Origin: Vicinamibacterales bacterium
Lineage (GTDB): Bacteria > Acidobacteriota > Vicinamibacteria > Vicinamibacterales > UBA2999
Reading direction: 5' to 3'
Assembly: GCA_030680175.1 (NCBI GenBank)
Contig: JAUXWO010000090.1
Location: 9,933 to 73,932 of the forward strand
DNA: 64,000 nucleotides
A model generated the notes under the pieces. The model ran no database searches. It saw nothing but the letters and a program-made list of their open reading frames with translations, and had not been told where the DNA came from. Numbering within the stretch: the first letter of the stretch is position 1; each line of letters begins with the position of its first letter. The position numbers and the translations under genes were made by a program. Shown piece after piece: positions 6,274 through 62,478 of this stretch.

Positions 6274-7151
6274 GGCGCCCCTCCGGCCGCGGCCAGCCGC
6301 GCCGCCAGCCGCACAGCATGCACGAAGCTGCCCGCGTCCGCCACGCCGCGCCCCGCGATGTCGAACGCCGTCCCATGATCGACGGAGGTCCGCACGATGG
6401 GCAGGCCAAGCGTCACGTTGACGGCCTCGCCGAAGGCCAGCAGCTTCACGGGAATCAGCCCCTGGTCGTGGTAGCACGCCACGACCACGTCGAACTCGCC
6501 GCGCACGGCGCGGACGAACACGGTGTCGGCGGGAATCGGTCCGGTGACGTCGAGGCCCTCGGCGCGGGCGTCGGCCACGGCCGGCGTCAGCACCGTCTCG
6601 TCCTCGACGCCGAGCAGCCCCGATTCACCCGCGTGCGGGTTGAGCCCCGCCAGGGCGATGCGCGGCTTCGCCACGCCGAACCGCGGCAGCGCGCGCGCGG
6701 TGAGCCGAAGGGTGCTCCCGAGCCGCGCGCGGGTCAGCTGGCGCGGCACGTCGGCGAGCGGGATGTGCACGGTGGCCAGGACCACGGCCAGCGTTGGCGC
6801 GTGGAACATCATGGCCACCTCGTCGACGCCGCACAGGTGCGCCAGCAGATCGGTGTGGCCCTTCCATGGCAGCCCGGCCTTCGCAAACGCGAGCTTGTTG
6901 ATGGGGGCCGTGGCGATCGCCGCGACCCGGCCGGCACGCGCGTCCTCGACCGCCCGCACGATCACGTCGTACGCGGCGCGGCCCGCCTCCGCCGACACGA
7001 CGCCCGTCTCGACGCGCACGCCCGGGGGCGGCGCATACACGACCGGCTCGCAGACCTCCCGCACGCGCGGGTCGGCCGCGGCCCGGGCCGCGATCTCGGG
7101 GCCAATGCCGGCCGGGTCGCCGACGGTCATGGCCACGCGGGGCAGAGGCAT
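6270..7151 (-). CDS. pdxA: 4-hydroxythreonine-4-phosphate dehydrogenase
   Basis: Motifs VGDPAGIGPEI, GLNPHAGE and TSVDHGTAFDIAG match the PdxA family. At 293 aa it is somewhat short for the family. Confidence 0.85.
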   Translation of the reverse strand: MPLPRVAMTVGDPAGIGPEIAARAAADPRVREVCEPVVYAPPPGVRVETGVVSAEAGRAAYDVIVRAVEDARAGRVAAIATAPINKLAFAKAGLPWKGHTDLLAHLCGVDEVAMMFHAPTLAVVLATVHIPLADVPRQLTRARLGSTLRLTARALPRFGVAKPRIALAGLNPHAGESGLLGVEDETVLTPAVADARAEGLDVTGPIPADTVFVRAVRGEFDVVVACYHDQGLIPVKLLAFGEAVNVTLGLPIVRTSVDHGTAFDIAGRGVADAGSFVHAVRLAARLAAAGGAP

Positions 7152-7248
7152 CCGACGATTGTACTGCGATCAGCTCTCGGCTATCAGCTGTCGGCGGTCG
7201 GGAGGCAGACGCTGAAAGCCGATCGCCGACAGCCGATCGCCCTCTGCC
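7141..7248. repeat. Imperfect long hairpin built from CGGCTRT-type heptamers and their complement
   Basis: The outer stem is ggcagagg (7141-7148) paired with cctctgcc (7241-7248). The inner arm ctgtcggcggtcgg pairs with ccgatcgccgacag with one mismatch. The element lies between the holB stop and the pdxA start. Confidence 0.8.
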
Positions 7249-7260
7249 GGCCGCAGTCCG

Positions 7261-8310
7261 TCAGATCTGCATCGCGAGCCACTCCGCCACGACCTTCGAG
7301 CCGGCGTTGCGGTCGAGGGCCATGAGGGCGCGGTCCACGGACTGGAACGCCCGGCGGGCGCGGTCGCCGCCCGCGCCGCGCGTCAGGCGCGTGAGGCTGT
7401 CCTGCAGGTCGGGGTTGGCCAGGACGCGTAGATCCGCCCCGGCGTGGATCACCTCGAGGTCGCGCAACATCGACTGCGCGGCACGCAGCACGATGGCCAC
7501 CTCCTCGCGCGTGCGCTCGGGCTTCGCGCCGATCAGCAGCTTCGCCACCTCGAGCTTCTGCCGCACATCGTCCGACCCCACGATCTGAGCGAGGAACGCC
7601 TGCGCGGTCTGGCGCACCTCGGCGAGGTCCTCGGAGCTCTGCGCCAGCGCGCGCGAGATGCTGCCGTCGGCCAGCGCCGCGGCCGCGCGCGCCTCCGCCG
7701 GCGCGATCGCGTAGTCACGCGTGAGCACACCGGTGACTTCGTCCTCCGTCAGGCGCCCGAAGCGGAGGCGCATGCAGCGCGATCGCACGGTCTGCAGCAG
7801 GACGCCGGCCACGGAGGTGACGAGAATGAAGACGGTGGAGGCGGGCGGCTCCTCGAGCGACTTGAGGAGCGCATTCTGGGCCTGGGGCTCGAGCATCTCC
7901 GCATCGCGGATCAGCACGAAGCGGCGCTTCCCTTCGAACGGCCGGAAGTTGCAGCGCTCGAGCACCTCGCGGACGGGGTCGATCTTGATCGACGACTTCT
8001 CGTCGGGTTCGAGCGCCAGCACGTCCACATGCACGCCGCGGGCGATGCGGTCGCACGACTTGCAGGTCCCGCAGGCATCGATCCGGGTTTCGCTGCCCGC
8101 CGCCCCCTCCTCACCGGACCCGTCCTCCGCGCGCGCGGCCACGATGGGGGCCAGGCAGTTCACGGCCGCGGCCACGGCCTGCGCGACCTGCCACTTCCCC
8201 ACGCCGGGCGGGCCGTCGAACAGCAGCGTCGGCGGCAACGTCCCCCGCACAATCGCCCGCGTCAGCAGGCCGATCACGGGACGATGGCCGGCAAGGTCGC
8301 GGAAAGGCAT
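7261..8310 (-). CDS. holB: DNA polymerase III subunit delta'
   Basis: LLFDGPPGVGKWQVAQAVAAAVNC is an AAA+ clamp-loader P-loop. A Zn-module-like CGTCKSCDRI and an SRC motif (TVRSRCMRL) are also present. Confidence 0.85.
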   Translation of the reverse strand: MPFRDLAGHRPVIGLLTRAIVRGTLPPTLLFDGPPGVGKWQVAQAVAAAVNCLAPIVAARAEDGSGEEGAAGSETRIDACGTCKSCDRIARGVHVDVLALEPDEKSSIKIDPVREVLERCNFRPFEGKRRFVLIRDAEMLEPQAQNALLKSLEEPPASTVFILVTSVAGVLLQTVRSRCMRLRFGRLTEDEVTGVLTRDYAIAPAEARAAAALADGSISRALAQSSEDLAEVRQTAQAFLAQIVGSDDVRQKLEVAKLLIGAKPERTREEVAIVLRAAQSMLRDLEVIHAGADLRVLANPDLQDSLTRLTRGAGGDRARRAFQSVDRALMALDRNAGSKVVAEWLAMQI

Positions 8311-8336
8311 GGGGGATTATGGATCGAGGGGGGCGT

Positions 8337-8434
8337 GGGGAGTGGGTAGTGGGGAGTGGGGAGTGGGGAGTGGGCGGTGGGTAGTGGGGAGTGGGTAGTG
8401 GGGAGTGGGGAGTGGGTAGTGGGGAGTGGGTGGC
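8337..8434. repeat. 14 tandem heptamers GGGNAGT (G-quadruplex-type array on the plus strand)
   Basis: Read directly: ggggagt gggtagt ggggagt ggggagt ggggagt gggcggt gggtagt and so on. The array is intergenic between the PBP1A stop (8494) and the holB start (8310). Confidence 0.9.
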
Positions 8435-14782: not shown

Positions 14783-14966
14783 GATAGATCGACCGATCTC
14801 GTGATGTGGTGATCTCGAGATCTCGAATCTTGCGATGTTGCTTCGAACCTCTATTTATCTCGCGATTCTACGATGTCCCGGCGATCATCCGGTAGATCAC
14901 CGCATCGCAGCATCCGAACATTTCGGTCACCACATCACCACATCACGAGATCCGTAGATTCCGAAC
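14783..14966. repeat. Inter-tRNA spacer with GATCT/GTGATGTG-type short repeats and a perfect 19-bp inverted repeat
   Basis: gatctcgtgatgtggtgat (14795-14813) is the exact reverse complement of atcaccacatcacgagatc (14934-14952). Confidence 0.85.
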
Positions 14967-16675: not shown

Positions 16676-17149
16676 CTACCCGGCGGGGGCGATGCGCGAA
16701 AGCAGATCGCGCGTGGAGTGATCCTTGGGATCGCCAACGATGGCGATGCGTCCGCCGTAGGCGCGCACGGTCTCGCGCTCGGGGACGGTGTCGACCGTGT
16801 AGTCGGTGCCCTTGCAGTGCACGTCGGGCCGCAGCCGTTCGAGCAGCGGCGTCACGGTCGGTTCGGGGAAGATCACCACGTAGTCCACGGCGCCGAGCGC
16901 CGCCACGAGTTCGGCGCGGTCGGCGGCCGGCAGCACGGGACGCGACGGCCCCTTCAGCGTCCGCACCGACCGATCGTCATTGACCGCCACGATCAGGCGA
17001 TCGGCCTCACGGCGCGCGGCCTCGAGGTAGCGCACATGGCCCACGTGCAGCAGATCGAAGCAGCCGTTCGCGAACGCGACCGTCCGCCCCGCCGCGCGAT
17101 CGGCCGCCACACGCACGGCCACGTCCTCCCGGCTCAGGATCTCACCCAC
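16676..17149 (-). CDS. hldC: D-glycero-beta-D-manno-heptose 1-phosphate adenylyltransferase (RfaE domain II)
   Basis: The cytidylyltransferase motif is [18 protein letters not shown]. The protein is 157 aa with a GTG start at 17149. Confidence 0.9.
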
Positions 17150-17188
17150 CGTTCACCGTCCACCGTCCACCGCTCACCGTCCACCGTC
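17147..17188. repeat. Six tandem heptamers CACCGYY spanning the hldA stop and hldC start
   Basis: The units read caccgtt caccgtc caccgtc caccgct caccgtc caccgtc. They cover the 24-nt spacer plus the hldC start codon and the last hldA codons and stop. Confidence 0.9.
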
Positions 17189-18202
17189 CGTCACGGCCTC
17201 GCGCAGCTCCCGCACCGAGACCGTCGCGGTGCCGCGCTTCATCACGACGAGCCCGCCGGCGTAGTTGGCGAGCCGCGCGGCCTCTTCGAAGGTGGCGCCG
17301 GCGCCGAGCGCCAGCGTCATCACGGCCATCACGGTGTCCCCCGCGCCGGTGACGTCCGTCACCTCGTCGGGTCCGTAGATGGGGATGTGCACGGTCGGCT
17401 TGCCGGGCTCGAAGAGGGCCATCCCGCGGCTACCGCGTGTCACGAGCACCGCCTCCATGCGCGTCTTCTCGAGCACGGCGCGCCCCGCACGCTCGAGCAC
17501 GCGCGGGCGGTCCCCGATCGACACCCCCAGCACCTGCTCGACTTCGGATTCGTTCGGCGTGCACGCGGTCAGCCGCGAGAACTTCAGCAACTGGTAGCGC
17601 GAATCGACGAGCACCGGGATGCCACGGGCGTGCAGCGGGCGCGCGAGCGCGGCGACCATCCGCGGATCCACGAGGCCGGACCCGTAATCGGAGATGAGCA
17701 CGGCATCGGCCTGCCGCGTGGCGCGCGTGGCCGCGCGCACGATGGCGGCACGCTGCTGATCGGTGATCGGCCCCGACGGCCCGCGATCGATGCGGACCAC
17801 CTGCTGCTTGGCGGAATGCACGCCGCCGGCCAGGATCCGCGTCTTGACCGGCGTGCGGTACCCGGCCGGACGCACGATGCCCTGCCGGCCAATGCGCGGC
17901 GGCAGCGAGGCCATCAGCCGGCGGCCGGGCTCGTCGCGACCGGCCAGCGCCACGAGGCCGACCTGGCCGCCGAGCGCGGCGACGTTGCTGGCGGCGTTGC
18001 CGGCGCCTCCGGGCAGGATGGCCGTGGAGTCGTATTCGAGGATCAGGACGGGCGCTTCGCGCGACACACGCGCGACGCGCCCATAGACGAACTCGTCCGC
18101 GATCAGGTCACCGAGGACCACGACGCGGCAGGCGCGAAACCACGCGATCAGGTCGAGCAGGCGCCGGGAGGAGGCCGGCGCGGGGCGCTGAGAGGCTGGC
18201 AT
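17174..18202 (-). CDS. hldA: D-glycero-beta-D-manno-heptose-7-phosphate kinase (RfaE domain I, PfkB family)
   Basis: This is a PfkB-type carbohydrate kinase with GAGNAASNVAALGG and DVTGAGDTV motifs. It lies adjacent to hldC. Confidence 0.9.
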   Translation of the reverse strand: MPASQRPAPASSRRLLDLIAWFRACRVVVLGDLIADEFVYGRVARVSREAPVLILEYDSTAILPGGAGNAASNVAALGGQVGLVALAGRDEPGRRLMASLPPRIGRQGIVRPAGYRTPVKTRILAGGVHSAKQQVVRIDRGPSGPITDQQRAAIVRAATRATRQADAVLISDYGSGLVDPRMVAALARPLHARGIPVLVDSRYQLLKFSRLTACTPNESEVEQVLGVSIGDRPRVLERAGRAVLEKTRMEAVLVTRGSRGMALFEPGKPTVHIPIYGPDEVTDVTGAGDTVMAVMTLALGAGATFEEAARLANYAGGLVVMKRGTATVSVRELREAVTDGGR

Positions 18203-19459: not shown

Positions 19460-19650
19460 AGATAGATATCTCCGCAATCTGGTGATGTGGTGATGTGGTG
19501 ACGTGGTGATCTGATGTGGAGATCTGACGATGTTGCGATCGATGTGGTGATCTGATGGATCTATCTTGTGATCTTAAGGGATCTATCTTGCGATCTTGTG
19601 ATCTTGTGATCTGATGTGGCGATCTGTCATCTGACGAGATCTGTGATGGA
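19460..19650. repeat. GTGATGTG / CTTGTGAT-type 8-mer repeat field filling the waaF-gmhB spacer
   Basis: The sequence reads ggtgatgtggtgatgtggtgacgtggtgatctgatgtgg...cttgtgatcttgtgatctgatgtgg. It belongs to the same word family as 14783-14966 and 30972-31070. The motif continues into the last codons of waaF. Confidence 0.85.
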
Positions 19651-22651: not shown

Positions 22652-24004
22652 TCAGCTCACGACGCGAAACGGGCGCACCTTCGCGCCCGGCCCGTCCACC
22701 GGCAGCAGTGCGAGCAGCGCCGTGACCGTCCGGTCCTTCGCGCCGCGATTGGCCTCGACGAGCGCGCGGGCCGCCGCGCCGAGGCGCGCGCGCCGCACGG
22801 GGTCGGCCATCAGATCCACGAGCGCTGCTTCAAGTTCGCCCGCGGACCGCACCTGCACCCCTGCCTCGTGGGCGACGAAGGCCTCGGCAATCTCCGCGAA
22901 GTTCTGCATGTGCGGGCCGAACACGACGGGCTTGCCGAACACCGCGGGCTCGAGGATGTTGTGACCGCCGGTGGGCACGAGGCTCCCGCCGACGAACGCC
23001 ACGGTCGCGACCTGGTAGATGCGCGCCAGCTCGCCGATCGTATCGAGCACGACGATATCGGCGCGCGGCTCGGCATCCACGGGCAGCTCGCTGCGCCGCA
23101 CCGTGCGGAAGCCCTCTTCGCGGCAGATCTGCTCCACGTCGTCGAACCGCTCGGGGTGCCGCGGCGCGAGGATCAGGAGCGCCCCGGGCTGCGCCGCCTT
23201 GAGCTTGCGGAACGCGCGCAGGACCGCGGCCTCCTCGCCGCGCATCGTGCTGCCCGCCACGAGGACGGGACGCGACGCCGGCACGCGGAAGTAGCGCACG
23301 ACGCGGTCGCGCACGCGGACGTCGGCGGCGGCCACGGGCGCGTCGAGCGAATCGAACTTGAGGCTGCCCGTCACCGTGACACGCGCCGGATCGGCGCCCA
23401 GGTCGACGAAGCGGCGCGCCGATTCCTCGCTCTGCACGCAGAAGCGGTCGACGTGCGCCAGCACGCGGCGCATGAGCGGCCGCACGAGGCGGTAGCGCGG
23501 GTAGGATCGCGACGACAGGCGCCCGTTGACGATGGCCGTCTTCACGCCGCGGCGGTGGCACTCACGCAGCAGGTGCGGCCAGATCTCCGTCTCCATCATC
23601 AGGAACAGCCGTGGCCGCACCAGGTCGAGCGTCCGGCGCACGACGAAGGCGAAATCGAGCGGGAAGTAGAAGACCGCATCCACGTCGGGCACGTTGCGGC
23701 GTGCCAGCTGCTGCCCGGTCATCGTCGTCGTCGACAGGAAGATGCGCAGGCGCGGGTAGTGCTGCCGCAGTTCACGGATCAGCGGACGCACGGACAGCGT
23801 CTCGCCGACCGAGACCGCATGAATCCAGATGGAGGGCTCCGCATCCATGTTGAACGACACGGGGAGCGACCCGAGCCTCTGGGCGAGGCTGTCGACGTAC
23901 TTGCCGTGACGGATCGCCTGGTAGAGCAACCATGGCGAGACCACCACGAAGAGCGCCAGGGCGAACAGGCTGTAGAGGAAATACATGCGCGGCGGCGTGG
24001 CCAC
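22652..24004 (-). CDS. waaA: 3-deoxy-D-manno-octulosonic acid transferase
   Basis: IWIHAVSVGETLSVRPLI is the hallmark KdtA N-terminal motif. The protein is 450 aa. Confidence 0.9.
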   Translation of the reverse strand: MATPPRMYFLYSLFALALFVVVSPWLLYQAIRHGKYVDSLAQRLGSLPVSFNMDAEPSIWIHAVSVGETLSVRPLIRELRQHYPRLRIFLSTTTMTGQQLARRNVPDVDAVFYFPLDFAFVVRRTLDLVRPRLFLMMETEIWPHLLRECHRRGVKTAIVNGRLSSRSYPRYRLVRPLMRRVLAHVDRFCVQSEESARRFVDLGADPARVTVTGSLKFDSLDAPVAAADVRVRDRVVRYFRVPASRPVLVAGSTMRGEEAAVLRAFRKLKAAQPGALLILAPRHPERFDDVEQICREEGFRTVRRSELPVDAEPRADIVVLDTIGELARIYQVATVAFVGGSLVPTGGHNILEPAVFGKPVVFGPHMQNFAEIAEAFVAHEAGVQVRSAGELEAALVDLMADPVRRARLGAAARALVEANRGAKDRTVTALLALLPVDGPGAKVRPFRVVS

Positions 24005-24111
24005 TCCATCCCGAAGCCCGGCCGCGCGCCGTGCGCCCGCCGGTCACGGGATGCCAAAGTGTAACCAACAGAAAACACACGGGTTACAGTCAACGAAGTA
24101 TATCCCCCGGT

Positions 24112-25192
<1,081 letters not shown>

Positions 25193-25206
25193 CGGGGATC
25201 GGGGAA

Positions 25207-25269
25207 CGCCGAAAGCCGAAAGCCGAGAGCCGATAGCCGATAGCCGAGAGCCGAGAGCCGAACGCCGAC
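25207..25269. repeat. Nine tandem heptamers AGCCGAN (gap-pgk spacer)
   Basis: The units read cgccgaa agccgaa agccgag agccgat agccgat agccgag agccgag agccgaa cgccgac. Confidence 0.9.
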
Positions 25270-25278
25270 AGCATCCGT

Positions 25279-26478
25279 ATGACCAAGTACTCGATTCGTG
25301 ACCTCGACCTCGGCGGACGGCGCGTGTTCGTCCGCGTGGACTTCAACGTACCGATCGCGGACGGCGTCCTCGGCGACGAGACGCGGATCATGTCGGCGCT
25401 CCCGACCATTCGCCTGGCGCTCGAGCAGGGCGCCACCGTGGTGCTGGCCTCGCATCTCGGCCGCCCCAAGGGCGCCGTGACCGCGAAGTACAGCCTGCGC
25501 CCGGTGGCCGACCGGCTGGCCGCGATCCTCGGCCGGCCGGTGACGTTCGCCGCCGACTGCGTGGGCCCTCATGCCGAGGCGGCGGTGGCGGAAGCCCACG
25601 GACCGGGCGGCTCGCGCCTGGTGCTCCTCGAGAACCTGCGCTTCCACGCCGCCGAGGAAGCCAACGACGCCGCCTTCGCCGCCGGACTGGCCGCGCTGGC
25701 GGACGACTACGTCAACGACGCCTTCGGCGCGGCGCACCGGGCGCACGCGTCGGTCGCGGCGATCACGACGCACTTCCCGAAGGCGGCCGCCGGGCTCCTG
25801 ATGGAGAAGGAGCTCACGTACCTCGGGATGGCGCTCGACGAGCCGGAGCGGCCGTTCGTGGCGATCCTGGGCGGCGCCAAGGTGTCCGACAAGCTCGAGG
25901 TGATCGAGAACCTGCTGAAGCGCGTCGACCGGCTCCTCATCGGCGGGGCGATGGCGTACACGTTCTTCCGCGCGCTGGGCCTGCCGGTCGGGCGGTCGCT
26001 GGTCGAGGAGGACAAGCTCGACACCGCGCGGACGATCATCACCCACGCGAAGGCGCGCGACGTCCAGTTCTGCCTCCCCGTCGACCACGTCGTCGCCGCG
26101 GCGATCGAGGCGGGCGCCCCGACCGAGATCCTCAAGGTGAACGACGCAGCCATCGGCGACCGCATGGGCCTGGACATCGGGCCGGAGACGACGCGGCTGT
26201 ACGCGACGCTCGTGGCCGACGCGAAGACGATCGTCTGGAACGGGCCGATGGGCGTGTTCGAGACCGACGCATTCGCCAAGGGCACGCTCGGCGTCGCCCG
26301 TGCGGTGGCCGCGAGCACGGGCACGACGATCATCGGCGGGGGCGACTCGGTGGCCGCCATCAATCTGGCCGGCGTCGCCAGCCAGGTCACCCACATCTCA
26401 ACAGGCGGCGGCGCCTCGCTCGAGTTCCTCGGCGGCCGGATCCTGCCGGGGGTCGCCGCGCTGCCCGACAAGGGCTAG
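25279..26478 (+). CDS. pgk: Phosphoglycerate kinase
   Basis: [11 protein letters not shown] and ASHLGRPKG motifs are present. The C-terminus has [13 protein letters not shown]-like [13 protein letters not shown]. Confidence 0.95.
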
Positions 26479-26485
26479 GGGCGCT

Positions 26486-26667
26486 GTTCGCGATTCGCGA
26501 TTCGCGATTCGCTATTCGCGGTTCGCTATTCGCGGTTCGCAATTCGCAGTTCGCCCGTGCGCCGTTACGTTCTGCATCGTGCATTTCGCATTTCGCGACC
26601 CGCAGTCCGCGATTCGCCGTTCGCTCTCTGTTTTTGCATTCTGCATTTTGCATTTCGCTTTTTGCGT
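26486..26667. repeat. Heptamer array RTTCGCN x10 followed by degenerate GCATTT(C/T) repeats (pgk-tpiA spacer)
   Basis: The array starts gttcgcg attcgcg attcgcg attcgct attcgcg gttcgct attcgcg gttcgca attcgca gttcgcc. It continues with gcatttcgcatttcgcg...tttttgcattctgcattttgcatttcgc. Confidence 0.9.
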
Positions 26668-26698
26668 CCGGCCCTTCCGCCCTTGACCGAGTGAGACC

Positions 26699-27460
26699 AT
26701 GCGCCAGCCGATGATTGCCGGGAACTGGAAGATGTTCAAGACGGTCCACGAGGCCGTCGTGTTCGTGAAGGAGCTGCGCCCGCTCGTCGCGGATGTCACG
26801 GGCGTGGAGATCGTCGTCGCGCCGCCCTTCACGGCGATTCACGCGGTGGCCGAGGCCGCGCGCAACACGAACATCGGGGTGAGCGCCCAGTCCCTCCACT
26901 GGGAGCGCGAGGGTGCGTTCACGGGGGAGGTGAGCGCGGGGATGGTGCGCGAGGCGGGCGCCGAGTACGTGATCCTCGGCCACTCGGAGCGCCGGACGCT
27001 GTTTGGCGACACGGACCTGACGGTCAACCGCCGGCTGATGGCCGCGCTCGCCGCCGAGCTGACGCCGATCGTCTGCGTGGGCGAGACGCTGGAGCAGCGC
27101 GAAGGCGGGCAGACGCTGGCCGTGCTCGACCAGCAGTTGAAGCAGAGCCTCGATGGCGTGACCGGTGCCCAGCTGGCGGCGATCGTGGTGGCGTATGAGC
27201 CGGTGTGGGCGATCGGCACCGGCCGCAACGCCACCCCGGCGCAGGCCGGCGAGGCGCACACGCACCTGCGCGGACGGCTGCGCCAGTGGTTCGGCGCCGA
27301 CGCGGCCGAGCAGTGCCGCCTGCTCTACGGCGGCAGCGTGAAGCCGGGAAACATCGCGACGCTCATCGCCGAAGCCGACGTCGACGGCGCCCTGGTCGGC
27401 GGCGCCAGCCTGGATGTCGCGTCGTTTGCCGAGATCGTCAGGGGAGCGCTCGGACGGTAG
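26699..27460 (+). CDS. tpiA: Triose-phosphate isomerase
   Basis: IAGNWKM, GHSERR, AYEPVWAIGTG and YGGSV motifs are all present. Confidence 0.95.
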   Translation: MRQPMIAGNWKMFKTVHEAVVFVKELRPLVADVTGVEIVVAPPFTAIHAVAEAARNTNIGVSAQSLHWEREGAFTGEVSAGMVREAGAEYVILGHSERRTLFGDTDLTVNRRLMAALAAELTPIVCVGETLEQREGGQTLAVLDQQLKQSLDGVTGAQLAAIVVAYEPVWAIGTGRNATPAQAGEAHTHLRGRLRQWFGADAAEQCRLLYGGSVKPGNIATLIAEADVDGALVGGASLDVASFAEIVRGALGR

Positions 27461-27462
27461 AC

Positions 27463-27632
27463 AGCGATCAGTGGTCGGCTGTCGGCTATCAGCGATCGGC
27501 TTTCGGCTTTCGGCTTTCGGCTACCAGCTTCCGGCGCCACCCCGGCACCACGGCACCACGGCACCACGGCACCTCGGCACCCCGCCCCCAGGCACCCCGG
27601 GCACCCAGGGCACCCCGGGCACCCCGAGCACC
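27463..27632. repeat. Composite array: CGGCTNT heptamers then GGCACCNC 8-9-mers (tpiA-secG spacer)
   Basis: The first part reads cggctgtcggctatcagcgatcggctttcggctttcggctttcggct. The second reads ggcaccacggcaccacggcaccacggcacctcggcacc...ggcaccccgggcacccagggcaccccgggcaccccgagcacc. Confidence 0.9.
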
Positions 27633-27702
27633 TTGTCCCCGACCGCCCCGCCGTTGTATGATTGCGGTTTGTGACGCCGGGCAGATCCGGCGCAGAACAT
27701 CC

Positions 27703-28092
27703 ATGTATTACCTGCTGGTCGGCCTCTACGTCGTCATCTGTCTGGTGCTCATCGTCGTCGTTCTCCTGCAGCAGGGGAAGGGCGGGGACATCGCGGCCGC
27801 GTTTGGCGGCGGCGGCAGCCAGGCGGCCTTTGGCGCGCGCGCCGGGGCCACGTTCCTCACGAAGATGACGGCGGGGCTGGCCGTGTCGTTCATGGTGCTC
27901 GCGCTCGGCCTCGCGATTTGGGGCCAGCAGGGACCAGGGTCGGTGGTCGGCGGCGTCGATGGGCCGCCGCAAGTGCCGGCCGGCATCACGCTGCCTGCGG
28001 ACAGCCCCGTGCCGACGCCGACGCCGACGCCGCCACCGCAGCCCGAGCAGCCCCAGACGCCCGAAGGCGGCACGCCGCCCCAGGGTCAGTAG
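27703..28092 (+). CDS. secG: Preprotein translocase subunit SecG (with Pro-rich C-terminal tail)
   Basis: This is the internal ATG of ORF 27205..28092. The sequence [47 protein letters not shown]-like is the SecG signature. A tRNA-Leu follows, as in many bacteria. Confidence 0.85.
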   Translation: [129 protein letters not shown]

Positions 28093-28138
28093 TTTTCGAC
28101 CGCGGGCCCCGGCCCGCACGTGTAAGTCCCCTCTCGAC

Positions 28139-28224
28139 GCGGAAGTGGCGGAATGGCAGACGCACCAGCTTGAGGGGCTGGCGGGGGCAACCCCGTGGAG
28201 GTTCGAGTCCTCTCTTCCGCACCA
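28139..28224 (+). tRNA. tRNA-Leu (anticodon GAG)
   Basis: The acceptor stem is GCGGAAG/CTTCCGC. The anticodon stem-loop is CCAGC-TTGAGGG-GCTGG. It has a long variable arm (CGGGGGCAACCCCGT), T-loop GGTTCGAGTCC, and encoded CCA. Length is 86 nt. Confidence 0.9.
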
Positions 28225-28602
28225 ACCTCAAGGCCCGCTTCAGGCGGGCCTTTCGTTTTGGTGCCTCAGCGGGACTCAGCCACTCGGTCGTCGCGCTCCG
28301 CGCTCGACCTGGAGGGGTCGAGTCCCTGGTTCCGCACCAACCTCAAGGCCCGCTTCAGGCGGGCCTTTCGCTTTGGTGCCTCGAGAGGACTCAGCCACTC
28401 GGTCGTCGCGCTCCGCGCTCGACCTGGAGAGGTCGAGTCCCTGGTTCCGCACCAACCTCAAGGCCCCTTCAGGCGGGCCTTTCGCTTTGGTGCCTCGAGA
28501 GGACTCAGCCACTCGGTCGTCGCGCTCCGCGCTCGACCTGGAGAGGTCGAGTCCCTGGTTCCGCACCAACCTCAAGGCCCCTTCAGATGGGCCTTTTGTC
28601 GC
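28225..28602. repeat. 3.3 tandem copies of a 115-bp unit, each with a terminator hairpin and a mimic of the tRNA-Leu 3' end
   Basis: The units are 28225-28339, 28340-28454 and 28455-28568, with a partial unit at 28569-28602. Each unit ends in gtcgagtccctggttccgcacca, compared with the genuine gttcgagtcctctcttccgcacca. Confidence 0.9.
28230..28260 (+). terminator. Intrinsic terminator after tRNA-Leu
   Basis: The stem aaggcccgc / gcgggcctt has loop ttcag and is followed by tcgttttg. The same hairpin recurs at the start of each 115-bp repeat unit. Confidence 0.7.
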
Positions 28603-28690
28603 AATAACTTACGCCTCGATTAGCGCAATAACCTATTAATAGCTCAACTTAATAACCTATGATATGCGTGACGCCATTCCCTATGAATGG
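28603..28690. other. AT-rich junction with three direct AATAACYTA words
   Basis: The sequence is gcaataacttacgcctcgattagcgcaataacctattaatagctcaacttaataacctatgatatg. Its composition contrasts sharply with the rest of the window. Confidence 0.7.
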
Positions 28691-28721
28691 CCCGCCGCAC
28701 CCGTGACCCTGGATACAAGCG

Positions 28722-30287
28722 ATGGCAACGCCGCAGGAAAAGCTGGCTGAGTCTCTTGATGCCCTGCACGCGCTGCAGGCGCGCAGCGTGGCAATCCGCT
28801 CCGCTGATTTGAGCCGTACGCACCGCGAGCGCCTGCTCGGCGCCGGTTTCCTGCGGGAAGTGATCAAGGGCTGGTATGTCCCCGCGCGGCCGGACGAGGT
28901 GCCGGGCGACAGCACGCCGTGGTACGCCTCGTTCTGGGATTTCTGCGCCGCCTATCTGGCCGCGCGCTTCGGGAAGGACTGGTGCCTTTCTCCCGAGCAA
29001 TCGCTCTCCTTGCACGCCGGTAACAGGGCCGTGCCGGCGCAGCTGCTCGTGCGCACGCCCAAGGGCGGCAACAAGCCCACCGCGCTGCCGCATGGCACGT
29101 CGCTGTTTGATGTGCGCTATGCGATGCCGAAAGACAGCGAGGTCGTCGAGCGCGATGGTCTGCGGCTGTTCTCCGTTCCGGCGGCACTGGTGACGATATC
29201 GGAGCAGCACTTCGGCCGTGCGGCAACGGATGTGCGCGCAGCCATGGCGGGCGTCAAGGACGCCTCTGACGTGCTTGCCGTCCTGCTCGAGGGCGGCCAC
29301 AGCACGATCGCCGGGCGCCTGGCCGGCGCGTTCCGCAATGTCGGACAGGCGCGTATCGCCGACGGGATTCTCAAGACGATGACAGCGGCCGGCTACACGG
29401 TGCGGGAGAGCGATCCGTTCGAGGACCAGCCGGGCATCGTGCTGGCCGGCCGTGACGTTTCGCCCTACGTGAACCGCATTCGCCTGATGTGGGATGCGAT
29501 GCGTCAGCCTGCGCTGGATGCGTTTCCTGCCGCACCCGGACTCTCCCGCCAGCTGGAGACGTATCTGAAAGCCGTCGAGGACGTGTATGTGAACGATGCC
29601 TACCACTCCCTGTCGATTGAGGGCTACCGGGTCAGCCGCGAGCTCATCGAACGTGTGCGCAGCGGTGCGTGGAATCCCGATCAGAACGCCGAGGATCGTG
29701 AGAATCGCAGTGCACTCGCTGCGCGCGGGTACTACGATGCGTTCGGCGCAGTGAAGGCGAGTATCGGGAACGTGCTGCGCGGCGATAATCCTGGGATAGT
29801 CAGCCGCGATGATCACTCTGGCTGGTACCGGCGCCTGTTCGGACCGAGCGTGAGCGCGGGTCTCATCCGCGCTGCCGATCTGGCGGGCTACCGCAGCGGA
29901 CCGGTTTATATCCGGCGCTCGATGCATGTGCCGCCGCCGCGCGAGGCGGTGCGCGATTGCATGCCGGCGCTGTTCGAGCTTCTCGCGTCGGAGCCTGAAC
30001 CGGCTGTGCGCGCCGTGCTCGGGCACTTCGCGTTCGTTTACATCCATCCTTATATGGACGGCAACGGAAGGATGGGGCGCTTCCTGATGAATGTGATGAT
30101 GGCTGCGGGCGGCTACCCGTGGACCATCATTCCCCTTGAGCGGCGTGACGAGTACATGGCCACGCTCGAATCCGCGAGCGTGAAGCAGGACATCCGCCCG
30201 TTTGCGGCTTTCATCGGCGGCCTGGTGCGCGACGGCCTGCAAGGCAAGCCGCCGCCGCCCGTGCCGCTTCCGCGCGCGCGGTCATGA
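28722..30287 (+). CDS. Fic/DOC family protein (large, with N-terminal AbiEi-like domain)
   Basis: The Fic core motif is HPYMDGNGRMGR (HxFx[D/E]GNGRxxR). An upstream SLSIEG matches the [S/T]xxxE[G/N] inhibitory-helix motif. The N-terminus (RERLLGAGFLREVIKGWYVPARPDE) resembles AbiEi-type wHTH domains. Confidence 0.9.
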   Translation: MATPQEKLAESLDALHALQARSVAIRSADLSRTHRERLLGAGFLREVIKGWYVPARPDEVPGDSTPWYASFWDFCAAYLAARFGKDWCLSPEQSLSLHAGNRAVPAQLLVRTPKGGNKPTALPHGTSLFDVRYAMPKDSEVVERDGLRLFSVPAALVTISEQHFGRAATDVRAAMAGVKDASDVLAVLLEGGHSTIAGRLAGAFRNVGQARIADGILKTMTAAGYTVRESDPFEDQPGIVLAGRDVSPYVNRIRLMWDAMRQPALDAFPAAPGLSRQLETYLKAVEDVYVNDAYHSLSIEGYRVSRELIERVRSGAWNPDQNAEDRENRSALAARGYYDAFGAVKASIGNVLRGDNPGIVSRDDHSGWYRRLFGPSVSAGLIRAADLAGYRSGPVYIRRSMHVPPPREAVRDCMPALFELLASEPEPAVRAVLGHFAFVYIHPYMDGNGRMGRFLMNVMMAAGGYPWTIIPLERRDEYMATLESASVKQDIRPFAAFIGGLVRDGLQGKPPPPVPLPRARS

Positions 30288-30324
30288 AGGGCGCGGCGGA
30301 TCGAGGCCTCGGCAAGGGATGTGC

Positions 30325-30358
30325 GGGCGGCCCGGTAGTGGAACGTCAACGACACCCC
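30325..30358. repeat. Half copy (right arm) of the 112-bp palindromic element
   Basis: gggcggcccggtagtggaacgtcaacgacacccc aligns with gggcggcccggtagtagatcgtcaacgacac(g/c)cc in copies A and B. Confidence 0.75.
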
Positions 30359-30666
30359 CTTTAATCCCGGTCGGCCCTTGCGTTGGCGTTGCGGAGGCCG
30401 ACGTGGGAGGCGCGCGATGGGCGTCAGTACGCAACGTGCGCCGCAGGGAGCGTGCGCTTTCGAGCGCCGGCGCCGTAGGCCCAGCCGAAGGGGGGCCGGG
30501 TAGGCGCGGCGCGATGGGCGTCAGCACGAAAGCGCTCGCGCACGGAGGCGCAGGTGGCGAGCGCGCCCTCCCGGAGGCCGGAGCGACGGCAACGCAAGGG
30601 CCGATCGCGATTTGGGGGGGGGCGGGACTGCGGCGAGGCCGGTCTTTAGGTACGGAGCGAGAATCC

Positions 30667-30969
30667 CTACGGCTTGACCGGCGTGGCCGCCGTCTCCCCC
30701 GCCACCGTCGTCCACTCCCGCACTTCCCAACTCACCACCAGGCCGTTCAACACGTACGGGTCCGTCTTCGCGAACGTTTCCGGCACCTCGCGTGACTCGG
30801 CGCGGAAGAGCAGCACGGCGCCGTCCACCGGGTCAGTCAGCGCGCCGCCAAGCACGAGCTCCCCGCGCGCGGAGGCCGCCCACGCCTTCTCGAGGTGCAC
30901 CTGCCGGAACGCCGCCCGCCGCTCGAGGTAGTCGGGGGAGGTCTTGTAGAAGAGAAGGAAGTGTTTCAT
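30667..30969 (-). CDS. YciI-like (DGPF domain) protein
   Basis: The protein is 100 aa. MKHFLLFYKTSPDYLERRAAFRQVHLEKAW...GGALTDPVDGAVLLF...DPYVLNGLV is the typical YciI family pattern. Confidence 0.8.
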   Translation of the reverse strand: MKHFLLFYKTSPDYLERRAAFRQVHLEKAWAASARGELVLGGALTDPVDGAVLLFRAESREVPETFAKTDPYVLNGLVVSWEVREWTTVAGETAATPVKP

Positions 30970-30971
30970 TC

Positions 30972-31147
30972 AGATATCTCGCGATGTCGTGATGTGGTGA
31001 TCTGGTGATGGGATGTGCGATGTCAGGATCTCACGATCTATCTCGTGAGCTGCCCCGATCTCTCGATCTGCGTCCCCGCCGACAGCGGCGCGCCTTGTGC
31101 CGAGAGCCGGAAGCCGAAAGCCGATCGCTGATCGCTGATCGCTGACC
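30972..31147. repeat. Composite repeat field: GATCT/GTGATGTG words, then seven GCYGANN heptamers
   Basis: The first part reads gatatctcgcgatgtcgtgatgtggtgatctggtgatgggatgtgcgatg...gatctctcgatctg. The second reads gccgaga gccggaa gccgaaa gccgatc gctgatc gctgatc gctgacc. Confidence 0.85.
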
Positions 31148-31162
31148 GCCAGCGCGCAAGCG

Positions 31163-31345
31163 TCACACCCGCGCTGGCCTCCCCTTGAGCGGACAGGTGT
31201 CGCAGTTCAGCGACTCGCCGTCCGGGCCGAGCACCTCGGGGCCGCCGCAGGATCCACGCAGGCAGCGGTCTGAGAAGAGCACACCGACGGCCATCGCCAG
31301 CATGGCGATCCCGATGACGGCGATGGTGAGCAGCAGCAGTCCCAT
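31163..31345 (-). CDS. nqrM: (Na+)-NQR maturation factor NqrM
   Basis: The protein is 60 aa with one N-terminal TM helix. It has the conserved Cys pattern RGSCGG...CDTCP. Its start overlaps the apbE stop (TAATG). Confidence 0.75.
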   Translation of the reverse strand: MGLLLLTIAVIGIAMLAMAVGVLFSDRCLRGSCGGPEVLGPDGESLNCDTCPLKGRPARV

Positions 31346-32412: not shown

Positions 32413-32428
32413 GCGCCGTGTACCGTGT

Positions 32429-32459
32429 GCCGAAAGCTGATAGCCGACAGCTGAAAGCC
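32429..32459. repeat. Four heptamers GCYGANA (nqrF-apbE spacer)
   Basis: The units read gccgaaa gctgata gccgaca gctgaaa gcc. Confidence 0.8.
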
Positions 32460-33724: not shown

Positions 33725-33814
33725 GCGATCAGCTATCGGCTATCGGCTATCGGCAGGACACCCGCCGGGCATGGCGTGACAGCGTGACGGGCCGAAAGCC
33801 GAAAGCCGAGAGCC
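33725..33814. repeat. Inverted heptamer arrays (CGGCTAT x3 ... GCCGARA x3) inside the nqr operon
   Basis: The left arm is gcgatcagctatcggctatcggctatcggc (33725-33754). The right arm is gccgaaagccgaaagccgagagcc (33791-33814). The arms are imperfect reverse complements separated by a 36-nt loop. Confidence 0.85.
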
Positions 33815-40953: not shown

Positions 40954-41022
40954 TGCGTCCCCCTCGGAGACCAGCCTACCAGTACGCGCCGCGGACGCGC
41001 CCCCGTGGTCCCCGCTTCCCGC

Positions 41023-41077
41023 CCCCGATCCCCGATCCCCGATCCCTGATCCCTGATCCCCCGATCCCCGATCCCCG
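41023..41077. repeat. Eight tandem heptamers CCCYGAT (G4N3 motif on the minus strand)
   Basis: The units read ccccgat ccccgat ccccgat ccctgat ccctgat cccccgat ccccgat ccccg. The array lies in the divergent spacer between the DUF3014 and amidase genes. Confidence 0.9.
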
Positions 41078-60448: not shown

Positions 60449-60473
60449 AGGCCTTCTGCTGCCTTCTGCCTGT

Positions 60474-60585
60474 GCTAGTGGAGTGTATCGACTGAAGAGG
60501 TACTACCAGCGCTTCTGCTCAGCCGCGATTCCGCGGGCCGCCCAACGGGCGGCCCGGTAGTAGATCGTCAACGACACCCCACTAG
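60474..60585. repeat. ~112-bp palindromic MITE/REP-like element, copy B
   Basis: It differs from copy A (13642-13753) at about five positions. It is bounded by ctag...ctag. The right-hand ctag contains the korA stop codon. Confidence 0.85.
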
Positions 60586-62378
60586 GCCGCCTTGTCGATT
60601 TTCGCCCGGACGCCCGTCACCACGTGGTGGGCGCTCATCGGGAAGCCGCCGTAGTACCGCACCGAGTGCAGCCGGTCGAGCGGCACAGCGGTCTCGAGCG
60701 TCAGCAGGTTACGGAGCTGCCCGTCGCGGTTCTGCTCCACCACGAAGTTCACCTCGTGCGCCTCGAGGAACTGCCGCACATCGTCGCCGAACGGGAACCC
60801 GCGCACGCGCATGAAGTCGAGGGCGATGCCCTCACGCTCGAGCAGGTCGAGCGCCTCTACGCACGCCGCGTGGCAGCCGCCGATCGTCACGACGCCCATC
60901 GTGGCGCCCGGCCGGTGGCGGATGACGGGCGCGGGGACGGCCGCGGCGGCGTTCTGGATCTTGCGGGCGATCCGATCGACGACGTCCGTGTACTCCTCGT
61001 CGTCTTCGGTGTAGCGGCCGAAGCGGTTGTGGCCGGAGCCGCGCGCGAAGTAGGCGCCGTTCGGGTGCACCCCCGGCAGGGTGCGCGCGGCGATTCCGTC
61101 GCCATCGGCATCGACATACCGGTAGAACGCCTTGAGGGACTCCAGTTCCTCGACGCCGAGCACCTTGCCCCGGTCCGGACGGTAGGTGTCATCCCAGGTG
61201 AGCTTCGGGACCATCCAGTCGTTCATGCCGATGTCGAGATCGGTCAGCACGAAGACGGGTGTCTGAAAGCGCTCGGCCAGATCGAAGGCCGCGACGGCGA
61301 ACTCGAACGCCTCCCGGGGGTCGGACGGATAGAGGCAGACGTGCCGCGTGTCCCCATGGGAGGCATACGCGCACATCATCAGATCGCCCTGCTGCGTGCG
61401 TGTGGGCATCCCCGTGGACGGGCCCGTGCGCTGGACATCGAAGATCACGGCCGGCACCTCGGCGTAGTACGCCAGGCCGAGGAACTCGTTCATCAGCGAG
61501 ATGCCGGGACCGGAGGTGGGCGTGAAGGCGCGCGCGCCGGACCATCCGGCGCCGATCACCATGCCGATGGCGGCCAGTTCGTCCTCGGCCTGCAGGATCG
61601 CGTACCGGTTCTGCCTGGTCTCCGGATCGCGCCGGTACTTCTTGCAGAACCCGTTGAAGGCCTCCATCATCGAGGTGGACGGCGTGATGGGATACCACGC
61701 GCCGACGGTCGCGCCGGCGTACACGCAGCCGAGCGCCGCCGACGTGTTGCCGTCGATGAGGATCGCCTCCCGGGTTTCGTCCATCGGGGCGAGACGAATC
61801 GGCAGCGGGCAGTCGAAGTGCTCGGTGGCGTAGTCGAATCCGAGCGCGAGGGCCGCGTCGTTCGAATCGAGCAGCGCCGGCTTGGCCGCGTACTTCTCAC
61901 GGATGAGCGCCCGCACGATCTCGGTATCCATGCCGATGAGCGCCGCGAGCGCCCCGGCATAGGCGATGTTCTTCATCAGGATGCGCTCGCGCACCCCCGC
62001 GAACCGCGCGTTGCACAGCCCGGCGAGCGGCACACCGAGGTAGGTGACGTCGGGCCGCTTCAGCGCCGCATCGAGCGGCCACGTCGCGTCGAAGAGCAGC
62101 CAGCCGCCGCTGCGCACCTCGGCCACGTCCCGGGCGTAGGTCGCGGGATTGAGGGCGACCATCAGGTCGAAGTGTGGCGTCCGGGCGGTGTAGCCGTCCT
62201 TGCTGACGCGGATCTCGTACCACGTCGGCAGGCCCTGGATGTTCGACGGGAACACGTTCTTCCCCGTCACCGGCACACCCATCCGGAAGATGGCCTGCAT
62301 GATCAGCCCGTTGGCCGACGCGGACCCCGTGCCGTTCGGCGTGGCGATCTTGAAGGCGAAATCGTTCGTGCGATCCAT
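60582..62378 (-). CDS. korA: 2-oxoacid:ferredoxin oxidoreductase subunit alpha
   Basis: The protein is 598 aa. The N-terminal gamma-like domain (IATPNGTGSASANGL) is fused to the alpha domain (AWYPITPST), typical of KorA. Confidence 0.9.
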   Translation of the reverse strand: MDRTNDFAFKIATPNGTGSASANGLIMQAIFRMGVPVTGKNVFPSNIQGLPTWYEIRVSKDGYTARTPHFDLMVALNPATYARDVAEVRSGGWLLFDATWPLDAALKRPDVTYLGVPLAGLCNARFAGVRERILMKNIAYAGALAALIGMDTEIVRALIREKYAAKPALLDSNDAALALGFDYATEHFDCPLPIRLAPMDETREAILIDGNTSAALGCVYAGATVGAWYPITPSTSMMEAFNGFCKKYRRDPETRQNRYAILQAEDELAAIGMVIGAGWSGARAFTPTSGPGISLMNEFLGLAYYAEVPAVIFDVQRTGPSTGMPTRTQQGDLMMCAYASHGDTRHVCLYPSDPREAFEFAVAAFDLAERFQTPVFVLTDLDIGMNDWMVPKLTWDDTYRPDRGKVLGVEELESLKAFYRYVDADGDGIAARTLPGVHPNGAYFARGSGHNRFGRYTEDDEEYTDVVDRIARKIQNAAAAVPAPVIRHRPGATMGVVTIGGCHAACVEALDLLEREGIALDFMRVRGFPFGDDVRQFLEAHEVNFVVEQNRDGQLRNLLTLETAVPLDRLHSVRYYGGFPMSAHHVVTGVRAKIDKAA

Positions 62379-62387
62379 ACGGGTCTC

Positions 62388-62478
62388 GTCTATCGGCTAT
62401 CGGCGCTCAGCTATCGGCTTTCGGCTTTCGGCTTTCGGCTGCCTTTTCGCATTTCGCATTTCGCATTTTGCATTCCGC
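62388..62478. repeat. Composite array: CGGCTNT heptamers then CGCATTT heptamers
   Basis: The units read ctatcggctatcggcgctcagctatcggctttcggctttcggctttcggct gccttttcgcatttcgcatttcgcattttgcattccg. Confidence 0.9.

Follow-up and report, generated by a model that had tools for sequence, protein, structure and literature searches.

Heptanucleotide repeat arrays in the intergenic DNA of a Vicinamibacterales genome

Introduction

In this study, we focus on a 64,000-nt stretch of the Vicinamibacterales (Acidobacteriota) contig JAUXWO010000090.1, hereafter the window, whose spacers carry 14 arrays of short head-to-tail repeats with units of 7 or 8 nt. The window has a GC content of about 70%, and its gene map, which was built from codon usage with the array-adjoining genes checked with Pfam, comprises 57 coding sequences and three tRNAs. 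Among species representatives, the nearest match of its Pgk is an Acidobacteriota metagenome-assembled genome (MAG), at 73% identity. The genes beside the arrays are housekeeping genes according to Pfam, including pdxA, holB, a class-A penicillin-binding protein (PBP) gene and a heptose/lipopolysaccharide (LPS)-core cluster; further arrays adjoin the gap-pgk-tpiA-secG-tRNA-Leu and nqrE-nqrF-apbE groups, a YCII-domain gene, an amidase gene, a GH15 glucoamylase gene, and 2-oxoacid:ferredoxin oxidoreductase genes.

The heptanucleotide repeat is the one class of simple-sequence repeat (SSR) that is over-represented in several bacterial phyla and that, more than 30 years after its description in cyanobacteria, has no established function or origin. 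The cyanobacterial heptamer repeats bear the name STRR and are used for strain fingerprinting. The arrays of the window belong to this already described class, and they are probably long SSRs with 7-nt (some 8-nt) units that are made at the DNA level by slippage and tolerated in spacers.

Arrays in the window and in a wider sample

An earlier note on this DNA had listed 14 loci with tandem units of 7-8 nt, and Tandem Repeats Finder (TRF), together with a reading of the sequences, finds units at all 14. Twelve of them show a strong period of 7 or 8, while two (7163-7257 and 32429-32459) are weaker, with a period of 14 and degenerate units. Copy numbers range from 2.2 to 15 in TRF, where a period of 21 (three units) often scores equal to or above a period of 7. 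The arrays far exceed chance expectation: against the mean of 20 third-order Markov simulations of the window, TRF returned 13 rows versus 0 for period 7, 5 versus 0.1 for period 8, and 6 versus 0.35 for period 21.

Non-genic DNA makes up 9.5% of the window and holds every one of the arrays, as the earlier note had said of their non-coding nature; only 17146-17189 touches gene ends. Together they sum to 1544 nt, or about 25% of the non-genic DNA. The heptad pseudo-peptides that the note ascribed to the repeats are present in the list of open reading frames (ORFs).

For a wider view, metagenome contigs were scanned for (TTCGGCT)3. At least 120 contigs match, of which 80, with GC contents of 40-70%, were analysed, so this one heptamer array occurs across many taxa. 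Genes were called with arrays set as hard ORF boundaries and with codon models per GC bin, two earlier variants having been discarded because spurious ORFs ran through the arrays; the resulting calls are crude, and all of these loci were selected for having an array. Period 7 dominates among the 80 loci (127 TRF rows; no other period exceeds 32), and at most eight of the 87 classifiable metagenome arrays may be readable through in frame.

Turnover at orthologous spacers

Relatives' contigs were chosen by TpiA identity (L081-L083, 97%; L084/85, 91%; L207, 88%; L086 and L208, 85%; L209, 79%; L210, 78%). Comparison of unit counts at orthologous spacers, a check that the earlier note had suggested, brought to light whole-unit steps, flips of orientation, family replacement, and absence of arrays. 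Between the window and L081, copy numbers differ at all three operon spacers: (AGCCGAN) occurs 9.9 times in the gap-pgk spacer of the window and in about three units in L081; the ATTCGCN/TTCGCNN family of pgk-tpiA has about 10 units in the window, 5.7 copies in L081, and 4.7 in L082; and the tpiA-secG 8-mer has 11.5 copies in the window versus 14.1 in L081. The pgk-tpiA spacer measures 94 nt in L081 versus 87 nt in L082, a difference of exactly one 7-nt unit between contigs with identical TpiA.

At larger distances, orientation and unit change as well. In L084/85 and L207, the gap-pgk spacer contains TTCGGCT and AGCCGAG as an inverted pair, and the pgk-tpiA family is replaced by GTTCTCA plus GGTCCCY in L084/85, by CAGTTNC in L207, and by GGCACCTGA in L086, with no array in this spacer of L208. 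At tpiA-secG, L081, L086, and L207 have both the TCGGCTN and the GGCACCNC family, in differing copy numbers, whereas no heptamer array lies there in L084/85. Elsewhere, L085 and L208 retain the CACCGYY, GTGATCT, and GCCGATA families at the corresponding spacers: a larger CCACCGT-family array lies at the heptose-gene junction of L085, and the L208 counterparts of 30972-31149 and 33725-33814 carry ATCTGGTG/GTGATCT units and GCCGATA x6.4, respectively. In the heptosyltransferase-HAD spacer of L084/L085, ATCACCAC represents the family of 19460-19650 (the GTGATGTG group), reverse-complemented. The flanks of the arrays consist of decayed units only.

L210 (73% GC) retains the LPS and gap-pgk-tpiA-secG gene orders with junctions that overlap or are shorter than 35 nt and has no arrays; L209 likewise keeps both orders, with overlapping or short junctions and few arrays. 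Array richness is thus lineage-specific within Vicinamibacterales. The arrays are lineage-specific spacer expansions that persist for long at a locus while changing fast in length, orientation, and unit. We infer slippage from the changes in whole units and from runs of adjacent units that share a variant, and the mention of slippage-prone sequences among the candidates of the earlier note is the best-supported part of its reading.

Assembly or sequencing artefacts would be a rival account, given that the window comes from a MAG and that short-read assemblers can mis-size tandem repeats, so that copy numbers may be inexact. The same families recur, however, at the orthologous spacers of assemblies that are independent of one another (JGI, ENA, NCBI, and Logan) and include a 1.41-Mb contig; (TTCGGCT)3 is found in the metagenome contigs counted above, and finished genomes also contain repeats of this class (PMC4692102, PMC2700814). 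The presence of arrays in assemblies from four sources rules out an artefactual origin, for which we retain practically no expectation.

Two further structures were seen in the pgk-tpiA and tpiA-secG spacers. At positions 3006-3192 of L207 (pgk-tpiA), a 56-nt higher-order duplication holds CAGTTNC heptamers, with inverted GAACTGG units after it, and illustrates array growth via multi-unit block duplication. In L084 (9061-9404) and L085 (10760-11103), the tpiA-secG spacer contains a 344-nt insert that includes a long near-perfect palindrome (…GTTGTGGCTGCTGAACGTGCGGGAGGAAAGCACGCC / GGCGTGCTTTCCTCCCGCACGTTCAGCGGCCACAG…), which is an intergenic element of a different kind.

Placement among genes

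The earlier note counted 13 arrays between co-directional genes and one (41022-41077) in a divergent spacer, and the same count is obtained with the present gene map. Its inference that the arrays are specific to co-directional junctions is not supported: among spacers of at least 40 nt, the threshold used in the window and in the metagenome loci, 12 of 27 co-directional ones and one of eight others carry an array (Fisher p=0.21), and the comparison with divergent spacers only (12/27 vs 1/6) gives p=0.36. In the array-selected metagenome loci, with their crude gene calls, arrays occur in 36 of 123 co-directional, 10 of 44 divergent, and 15 of 39 convergent spacers (co-directional versus divergent, p=0.44), which comes close to the equal frequency across spacer types that the note had named as its refutation. 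Co-directional specificity was set aside, as the window test does not support it and the metagenome loci show no preference. On these counts, the arrays are intergenic, not specifically intercistronic.

That no array lies in a convergent spacer of the window likewise carries little weight: of the seven convergent junctions, five measure 10-28 nt and a sixth 40 nt, which leaves no room for an array. Similarly, the division of co-directional junctions into overlaps and repeat-filled spacers was overstated, because 15 co-directional spacers of 40-584 nt are free of arrays.

Two observations favour the intercistronic idea. GGGNATC repeats are under-represented between divergent ORFs in their own genomes (PMC4692102), and a hot spot lies inside the gap-pgk-tpiA operon. 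In a survey of 17 Acidobacteriota loci centred on pgk, 10 of 20 pgk-flanking spacers contain a 7- or 8-mer array, compared with 17 of 134 other spacers (p=3e-4), counts that are slightly inflated by the near-duplicates L084 and L085. The units found at pgk-flanking spacers are unrelated between Acidobacteriota genomes.

With respect to transcription, the repeats lack a preferred orientation. The metagenome co-directional spacers present 16 TTCGGCT and 14 AGCCGAA arrays in the mRNA sense, and the arrays of the window are without GC-skew bias. Random unit orientation argues against a strand-specific RNA motif, a candidate that was rejected on these two results. Together with the insignificant co-directional bias, it also leaves the note's central inference, an intercistronic function, unsupported.

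Unit families and their variation

The unit families described in the earlier note, and their use in both orientations, were borne out by TRF and by reading the arrays. CGGCTNT/ANAGCCG occurs at 7 of the 14 loci and TTCGCNN, which takes in the CGCATTT units, at three; the remaining families are GGGNAGT, CCCYGAT, CACCGYY, the 8-mer GGCACCNC, and the GTGATGTG/GATCT group. As the note had also observed, each unit has an invariant core and one or two variable positions, with up to four alleles at the variable positions of TCGGCT-N, TTCGC-NN, and GGG-N-AGT. In the metagenome sample of TTCGGCT arrays, single-mismatch variants are spread almost uniformly over the unit positions, a neutral-looking decay.

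The families cannot be traced to common coding words. The array heptamers rank 335 to 4218 among 5444 7-mers in the coding DNA of the window, some with 0-3 occurrences, and seeding of the arrays from abundant k-mers was rejected on this basis.

A restricted repertoire of this kind would be accounted for if the arrays were tandem sites for a factor that reads a 5-6-nt core every 7 nt, either a nucleoid-associated or global regulatory DNA binder or an orientation-blind single-strand binder such as a cold-shock protein. The repertoire recurs across loci and relatives without an explanation in k-mer abundance, the cores are invariant next to a position with up to four alleles, the use of both orientations fits double-stranded DNA recognition, and three units span 21 bp, about two helical turns, which would match the period that TRF often favours. 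Precedents exist in Geobacter, where hepta- and octanucleotide sets, mostly paired, were annotated as putative global-regulator sites (PMC2700814), and in the proposal of S1, Csp, and CsrA as candidate binders by MacGregor (2015, PMC4679880). Nevertheless, no candidate protein was identified, and five or more unrelated families occur side by side and substitute for one another at a single spacer, which would call for multiple binders or for none at all. Array sizes range from 2 to 15 copies, variation in the broad TTCGGCT sample is nearly uniform over the unit, and one heptamer array spans contigs of very different GC content and taxonomy. We regard such binding sites as quite unlikely.

RNA folding and transcription signals

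The RNA of the array spacers falls into two structural types. The four spacers with inverted arrays form strong predicted hairpins (z -3.0 to -5.7 against dinucleotide shuffles), whereas spacers with single-orientation arrays are strikingly unfolded (-0.13 to -0.18 kcal/nt; z as high as +3.6), a value of about -0.4 to -0.5 kcal/nt being found for most spacers without an array. Weak folding extends over the following start region (-40 to +20), which has a median of -8.8 kcal/mol behind arrays versus -18.8 where the preceding spacer is array-free and 40 nt or longer (p=1.4e-4), and the accessibility from -20 to +10 is 0.53 versus 0.38. The effect is weaker in the metagenome loci (-10.6 vs -13.5, p=0.017). 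A Shine-Dalgarno-like motif precedes 2 of 10 genes behind arrays versus 20 of 45 others, a trend only (p=0.28).

These values invite a reading of the arrays as selected RNA-level operon modules, in which direct arrays would keep the next start unfolded in a 70% GC mRNA, inverted ones would act as REP-like, register-tolerant hairpins stabilising or processing the mRNA upstream of them, and slippage would tune the stoichiometry of the operon's products. The unfolded and accessible start regions, the echo of the effect in the metagenome, the spacers less folded than their own shuffles, and the four strong hairpins are all in keeping with this, as are the reach of arrays up to the start codon, with the Shine-Dalgarno trend behind them, and the pgk-flanking hot spots across Acidobacteriota. 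A translational role was moreover proposed for TAACTGA repeats (MacGregor 2015, PMC4679880). Several results nonetheless speak against selection at this level. Orientation is random even though, in an RNA of eight units, AGCCGAA folds at just -2.4 and TTCGGCT at -14.4 kcal/mol; hairpin and non-hairpin forms swap at gap-pgk between the window and L084/L207; L209 and L210 run the same operon with overlapping genes; and an inverted partner accompanies only 5 of 81 metagenome arrays. Furthermore, permuting the units at constant composition does not raise their self-complementarity above that of the natural ones, so weak folding is a generic trait of short-period direct repeats, and selection of units for weak RNA folding was rejected. 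The unit permutations, the random orientation, and the hairpin/non-hairpin swaps argue that the folding effects are a by-product and not a selected feature, and we hold the RNA-module account to be unlikely.

Inverted pairing is not a general rule either: inverted arms occur in three or four of the 14 window spacers and at several Pyrinomonadaceae loci, and their rarity in the metagenome led to its rejection. In MAGs of Pyrinomonadaceae and other Acidobacteriota, pgk spacers contain head-to-head inverted heptamer pairs such as CAGTTTT/ACTGAAA and AGTGGTC/GACCACT (L012 7944-8023 and 9226-9312; L016 9855-9991; L010 5425-5604), which form hairpins with tandem-repeat arms.

Conventional signals do not coincide with the arrays. 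A consensus scan of 24000-34000 detected no terminator-like site in the arrays of 25204-33814, the nearest following tRNA-Leu, and a search of Rfam matched only the three tRNAs, with no family coinciding with an array; intrinsic terminators and known structured RNAs were accordingly set aside. The consensus scan for promoter-like sites likewise found none in the gap-pgk and pgk-tpiA spacers. Directly after the tpiA-secG array, it found the promoter-like TTGTCC-18-TATGAT at 27633-27662. The block 27633-27702 upstream of secG, in which this site is followed by TTGCGGTTTGTGACGCCGGGC..., has been retained by L081, L084/85, L086, and L208, whereas the arrays before it turn over. This block is probably a promoter or leader of secG itself, in which case the tpiA-secG array would sit at the end of an operon and not between cistrons.

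Origin and significance of the arrays

We favour an origin at the DNA level, to which the random unit orientation and the unexceptional self-complementarity of the units point. Strand slippage in replication or repair would add or remove units and spread mutated units along an array, and, as 7 is not a multiple of 3, arrays would survive outside genes only. They would accumulate in spacers without a promoter or operator, mostly inside operons or behind genes, where they could occupy the entire distance between one stop codon and the following start; 41022-41077 alone occupies a divergent spacer, which could hold promoters. The arrays would be co-transcribed with their neighbours, and single-orientation arrays would give unusually unfolded leaders before the next start codon and inverted arrays long imperfect hairpins, both as consequences of the arrays and not as the reason for their existence.

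Several findings weigh against this origin being the whole explanation. A small set of unit families recurs at many loci and is still found at the orthologous spacers of relatives with as little as about 85% TpiA identity, and the array heptamers are not the abundant words of the coding DNA; given this restricted repertoire, random seeding plus slippage is insufficient. Variation in the window arrays is limited to one or two unit positions, which hints at a constraint on the 5-6-nt core. The pgk hot spot could reflect selection instead of tolerance, and the weaker folding of start regions could likewise be selected. The repertoire, the position-specific variation, and the hot spot keep both the RNA-level and the protein-site accounts alive. 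A combination of these elements, in which the arrays form an evolvable operon-control layer in GC-rich genomes, with cores kept by an orientation-blind factor or by an RNA folding state and with slippage as a rheostat of cistron output, would explain the pgk hot spots despite unit turnover, the persistence of families, and the one or two variable positions; on balance we think it unlikely.

The interest of these arrays lies mainly in their density and in three leads, namely the weak start-region folding, the pgk hot spot, and the restricted unit repertoire, none of which is yet evidence of function, and not in a new type of element. In practice, arrays inflate spacers, and the spurious heptad-peptide ORFs may draw the extension of gene calls. 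They are also places where short-read MAG assemblies mis-size or break, and they are possible strain markers.

Individual arrays and neighbouring elements

The arrays are listed in Table 1.

Table 1. Tandem-repeat arrays of the window, all detected by TRF, with the period and score where reported (MFE, minimum free energy of the spacer)
Position	Units	Location	TRF period or score	Structure and other features
7163..7257	C[AG]GC[TG]NT degenerate units, then reverse complement ANAGCCG	holB / pdxA spacer	period 14	imperfect inverted pair, 39-nt arms 7163-7201 / 7219-7257, 74% complementary; fold z = -3.9
8326..8434	(GGGNAGT) x15 on + strand	PBP1 gene / holB spacer	period 7, score 154	C-rich in mRNA of flanking minus-strand genes; MFE just -0.13 kcal/nt
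14783..14966	8-nt units GATCTCGA, GTGATGTG + reverse complement TCACCACA	tRNA-Val / tRNA-Asp spacer		long-range inverted pair filling spacer; arms 14788-14820 / 14927-14959, 85% complementary; fold z = -5.7
17146..17189	(CCACCGT) x6.3	24-nt junction of two heptose-activation genes (PfkB-type kinase, cytidylyltransferase)	period 7 + 21	covers last 5 codons of upstream gene and start of downstream gene
19460..19650	8-nt units TGGTGATG, ATCTTGTG, GATCT-rich	heptosyltransferase / HAD-phosphatase spacer, filled		
25204..25272	(AGCCGAN) x9.9	gap-pgk spacer, filled		
26482..26665	(TTCGCNN) x8.7, then TTCGCAT / TGCATTT units	pgk-tpiA spacer, filled		
27462..27632	(TCGGCTN) x~7, then 8-nt (GGCACCNC) x11.5	tpiA stop to promoter-like block 5' of secG		
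30972..31149	GATGTGGT-type 8-mers, then (GCCGAAA) x3.7, (GATCGCT) x3.9	upstream of YCII-domain gene		
32429..32459	(GCCGAAAGCTGAAA) x2.2	nqrF / apbE spacer	period 14, score 48	weakest array
33725..33814	(ATCGGCT) x3.9 + (GCCGAAA) x3.4, inverted	nqrE / nqrF spacer		cores pair, variable positions mismatch; fold z = -3.0
41022..41077	(CCCYGAT) x7.7 = GGGGATC on opposite strand	divergent spacer; stops 2 nt 5' of amidase start codon		
42817..42865	(GCGAAYR) x5.7	amidase / GH15 glucoamylase spacer, filled to GTG start codon	period 7 + 21	
62386..62478	(TCGGCTN) x7.9, then (TTTCGCA) x4.9	Fer4/Pyr_redox oxidoreductase / POR genes		fold z = +1.9, -0.18 kcal/nt

Other elements lie near the arrays. At 28139-28640, a 115-nt unit is repeated 3.5 times in tandem behind tRNA-Leu(GAG), each copy combining a tRNA 3'-end-like fragment (GGTCGAGTCCCTGGTTCCGCACCA) with a terminator-like hairpin (AAGGCCCGCTTCAGGCGGGCCTT); the region looks like stacked integration remnants at a tRNA 3' end, though no integrase was seen there. 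A Fic/DOC-domain gene (28809-30287) with a lower GC content at third codon positions (0.79) comes after these repeats. Between it and the YCII-domain gene lies the sole long convergent spacer of the window (30288-30666, 379 nt), which has no array but, at -0.57 kcal/nt and with z about -4.3 on either strand, is more structured than any other spacer there; it has no match in Rfam. Its inverted repeats are nested, with 45-nt arms at 30355-30399/30576-30620 and 36-nt arms at 30430-30465/30524-30559, and it also contains a 32-nt direct repeat.

Heptamer arrays were also seen in viral contigs (L214-L289), among which, for three composition-matched units, (TCTGGCT)3, picked solely as a control, is present in 76, (TTCGGCT)3 in three, and (TTGCGCT)3 in one. 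Some heptamer arrays are strikingly common in phage or prophage sequence, and the use of viral contigs as a neutral baseline was dropped, the counts being too uneven.

Comparison with described repeat classes

The earlier note knew of no described function for such arrays and missed that the class had been described (PMC4692102, PMC4679880, PMC2700814, and the cyanobacterial repeats); its statement that the arrays lack an established function agrees with the position for the described heptamer classes. Some familiar categories do not apply. The units are 7-8 nt long and contiguous, without spacers, unlike a clustered regularly interspaced short palindromic repeat (CRISPR) array. The flanking genes are housekeeping genes and the arrays are placed after the stop codon of one gene and before the start of the next, unlike phase-variation contingency loci, where the repeat sits in a coding region or between promoter elements of surface, restriction-modification or virulence genes. 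Repetitive extragenic palindromic (REP) and bacterial interspersed mosaic (BIME) elements share with the arrays an intergenic, transcribed location, and the inverted-array subset can form hairpins behind operon genes; however, the arrays lack a conserved palindrome as their unit and do not form dispersed elements with defined ends, and most are unfoldable direct repeats. An assignment to REP/BIME or to miniature inverted-repeat transposable elements was rejected on the small number of spacers with inverted arms, the flanks made merely of decayed units, and the few inverted partners in the metagenome.

Arrays of GGGNATC and GGGGA(C/T)T in Xanthomonas and Nostoc are non-coding, lie near housekeeping genes and beside stop or start codons, and were described as having no known function (Rehm et al. 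2015, PMC4692102). The GGGNATC repeats prefer aligned ORFs, are rare between divergent ones, and are highly variable in length and sequence in close relatives (PMC4692102). The window shares with them a variable position within the heptamer, a G-rich strand that is non-coding 5' of ORFs, and occasional inversion, and 41022-41077 is literally (GGGGATC)n, the Xanthomonas/Nostoc-type repeat. In contrast, most window families are without G-tracts, arrays of four units are not favoured (2-15 copies), and neither the window nor the metagenome loci give a significant co-directional preference.

For the G-run subset (GGGNAGT x15 and CCCYGAT x7.7), a G-quadruplex or i-motif on the template strand just 5' of genes could be envisaged, as proposed in Xanthomonas and Nostoc. 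One of the two arrays matches GGGNATC exactly and the other (8326-8434) resembles the Nostoc GGGGA(C/T)T repeat; both have at least four G-tracts, and in both the G-rich strand is the non-coding one less than 50 nt 5' of an ORF, the position preference reported in PMC4692102. Yet a tract of three or more G per unit is found in only 2 of the 14 arrays, and partly in the 8-mer GGCACCNC; the dominant families CGGCTNT, TTCGCNN, and GTGATGTG are unable to form quadruplexes, and a regulatory role could not be shown by Rehm et al. (PMC4692102). We consider this function very unlikely, and a quadruplex-forming class was rejected for the arrays at large, 12 of 14 lacking a G3 tract in each unit.

The TAACTGA direct repeats of marine Beggiatoaceae form arrays that abut start codons (MacGregor 2015, PMC4679880). 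Like them, the window arrays abut starts, tend to displace a recognisable Shine-Dalgarno region, and stand beside all kinds of genes, including essential ones. The BOGUAY genome has one heptamer, mostly forward, in 2-6 copies, whereas the window has several families in random orientation with up to 15 copies.

In Geobacter metallireducens, families of 4-5 tandem hepta- or octamers occur at tens of sites, often as opposite-strand pairs (Aklujkar et al. 2009, PMC2700814), and the Geobacter heptamer GGGACCG is a unit in the relative L084/85 (GGGACCGGGGACCA). The Geobacter repeats have a fixed number of 4-5 copies, are aligned as discrete elements, and lie in some cases within genes, while the window arrays are open-ended in copy number and strictly non-genic. 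The tandem heptanucleotide repeats of Calothrix PCC 7601, as represented in PMC4692102 (ref. 39), share with the window a few genome-specific families that occur in tandem at many intergenic sites and are polymorphic enough to tell strains apart; they differ in belonging to another phylum and in the sequences of their units.

The closest correspondence is with long SSRs. As relayed in PMC4692102 and PMC4679880, Mrazek, Guo & Shah (2007) found heptamers to be the most abundant long SSR class in many, especially large high-GC, genomes and proposed polymerase slippage. In these accounts, long SSRs agree with the window arrays in their head-to-tail units of 7 (some 8) nt, their intergenic location, and a length greater than chance. 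The long SSRs with 5-11-nt units and the window further have in common large high-GC genomes of non-pathogens and no link to surface or virulence genes, as far as these accounts extend. Tandem 7-8-nt units, an excess over chance, confinement to non-coding DNA, and whole-unit polymorphism are all present in the window. In a survey by Huang & Mrazek (2014, PMC4060949), 7n3 alone among the SSR patterns had medians above zero in several phyla, and Acidobacteria (four genera) stood at 0. Since Acidobacteria were normal for 7n3 there, a heptamer-rich lineage of Vicinamibacterales is a new taxon for the class, and our literature search found no report of such repeats for Vicinamibacteria. The class is thereby extended to Vicinamibacterales, abundant soil Acidobacteriota, as an extreme case: relative to the long SSR survey, the window stands out by the quarter of its non-genic DNA that is array and by the several unit families found within single spacers.

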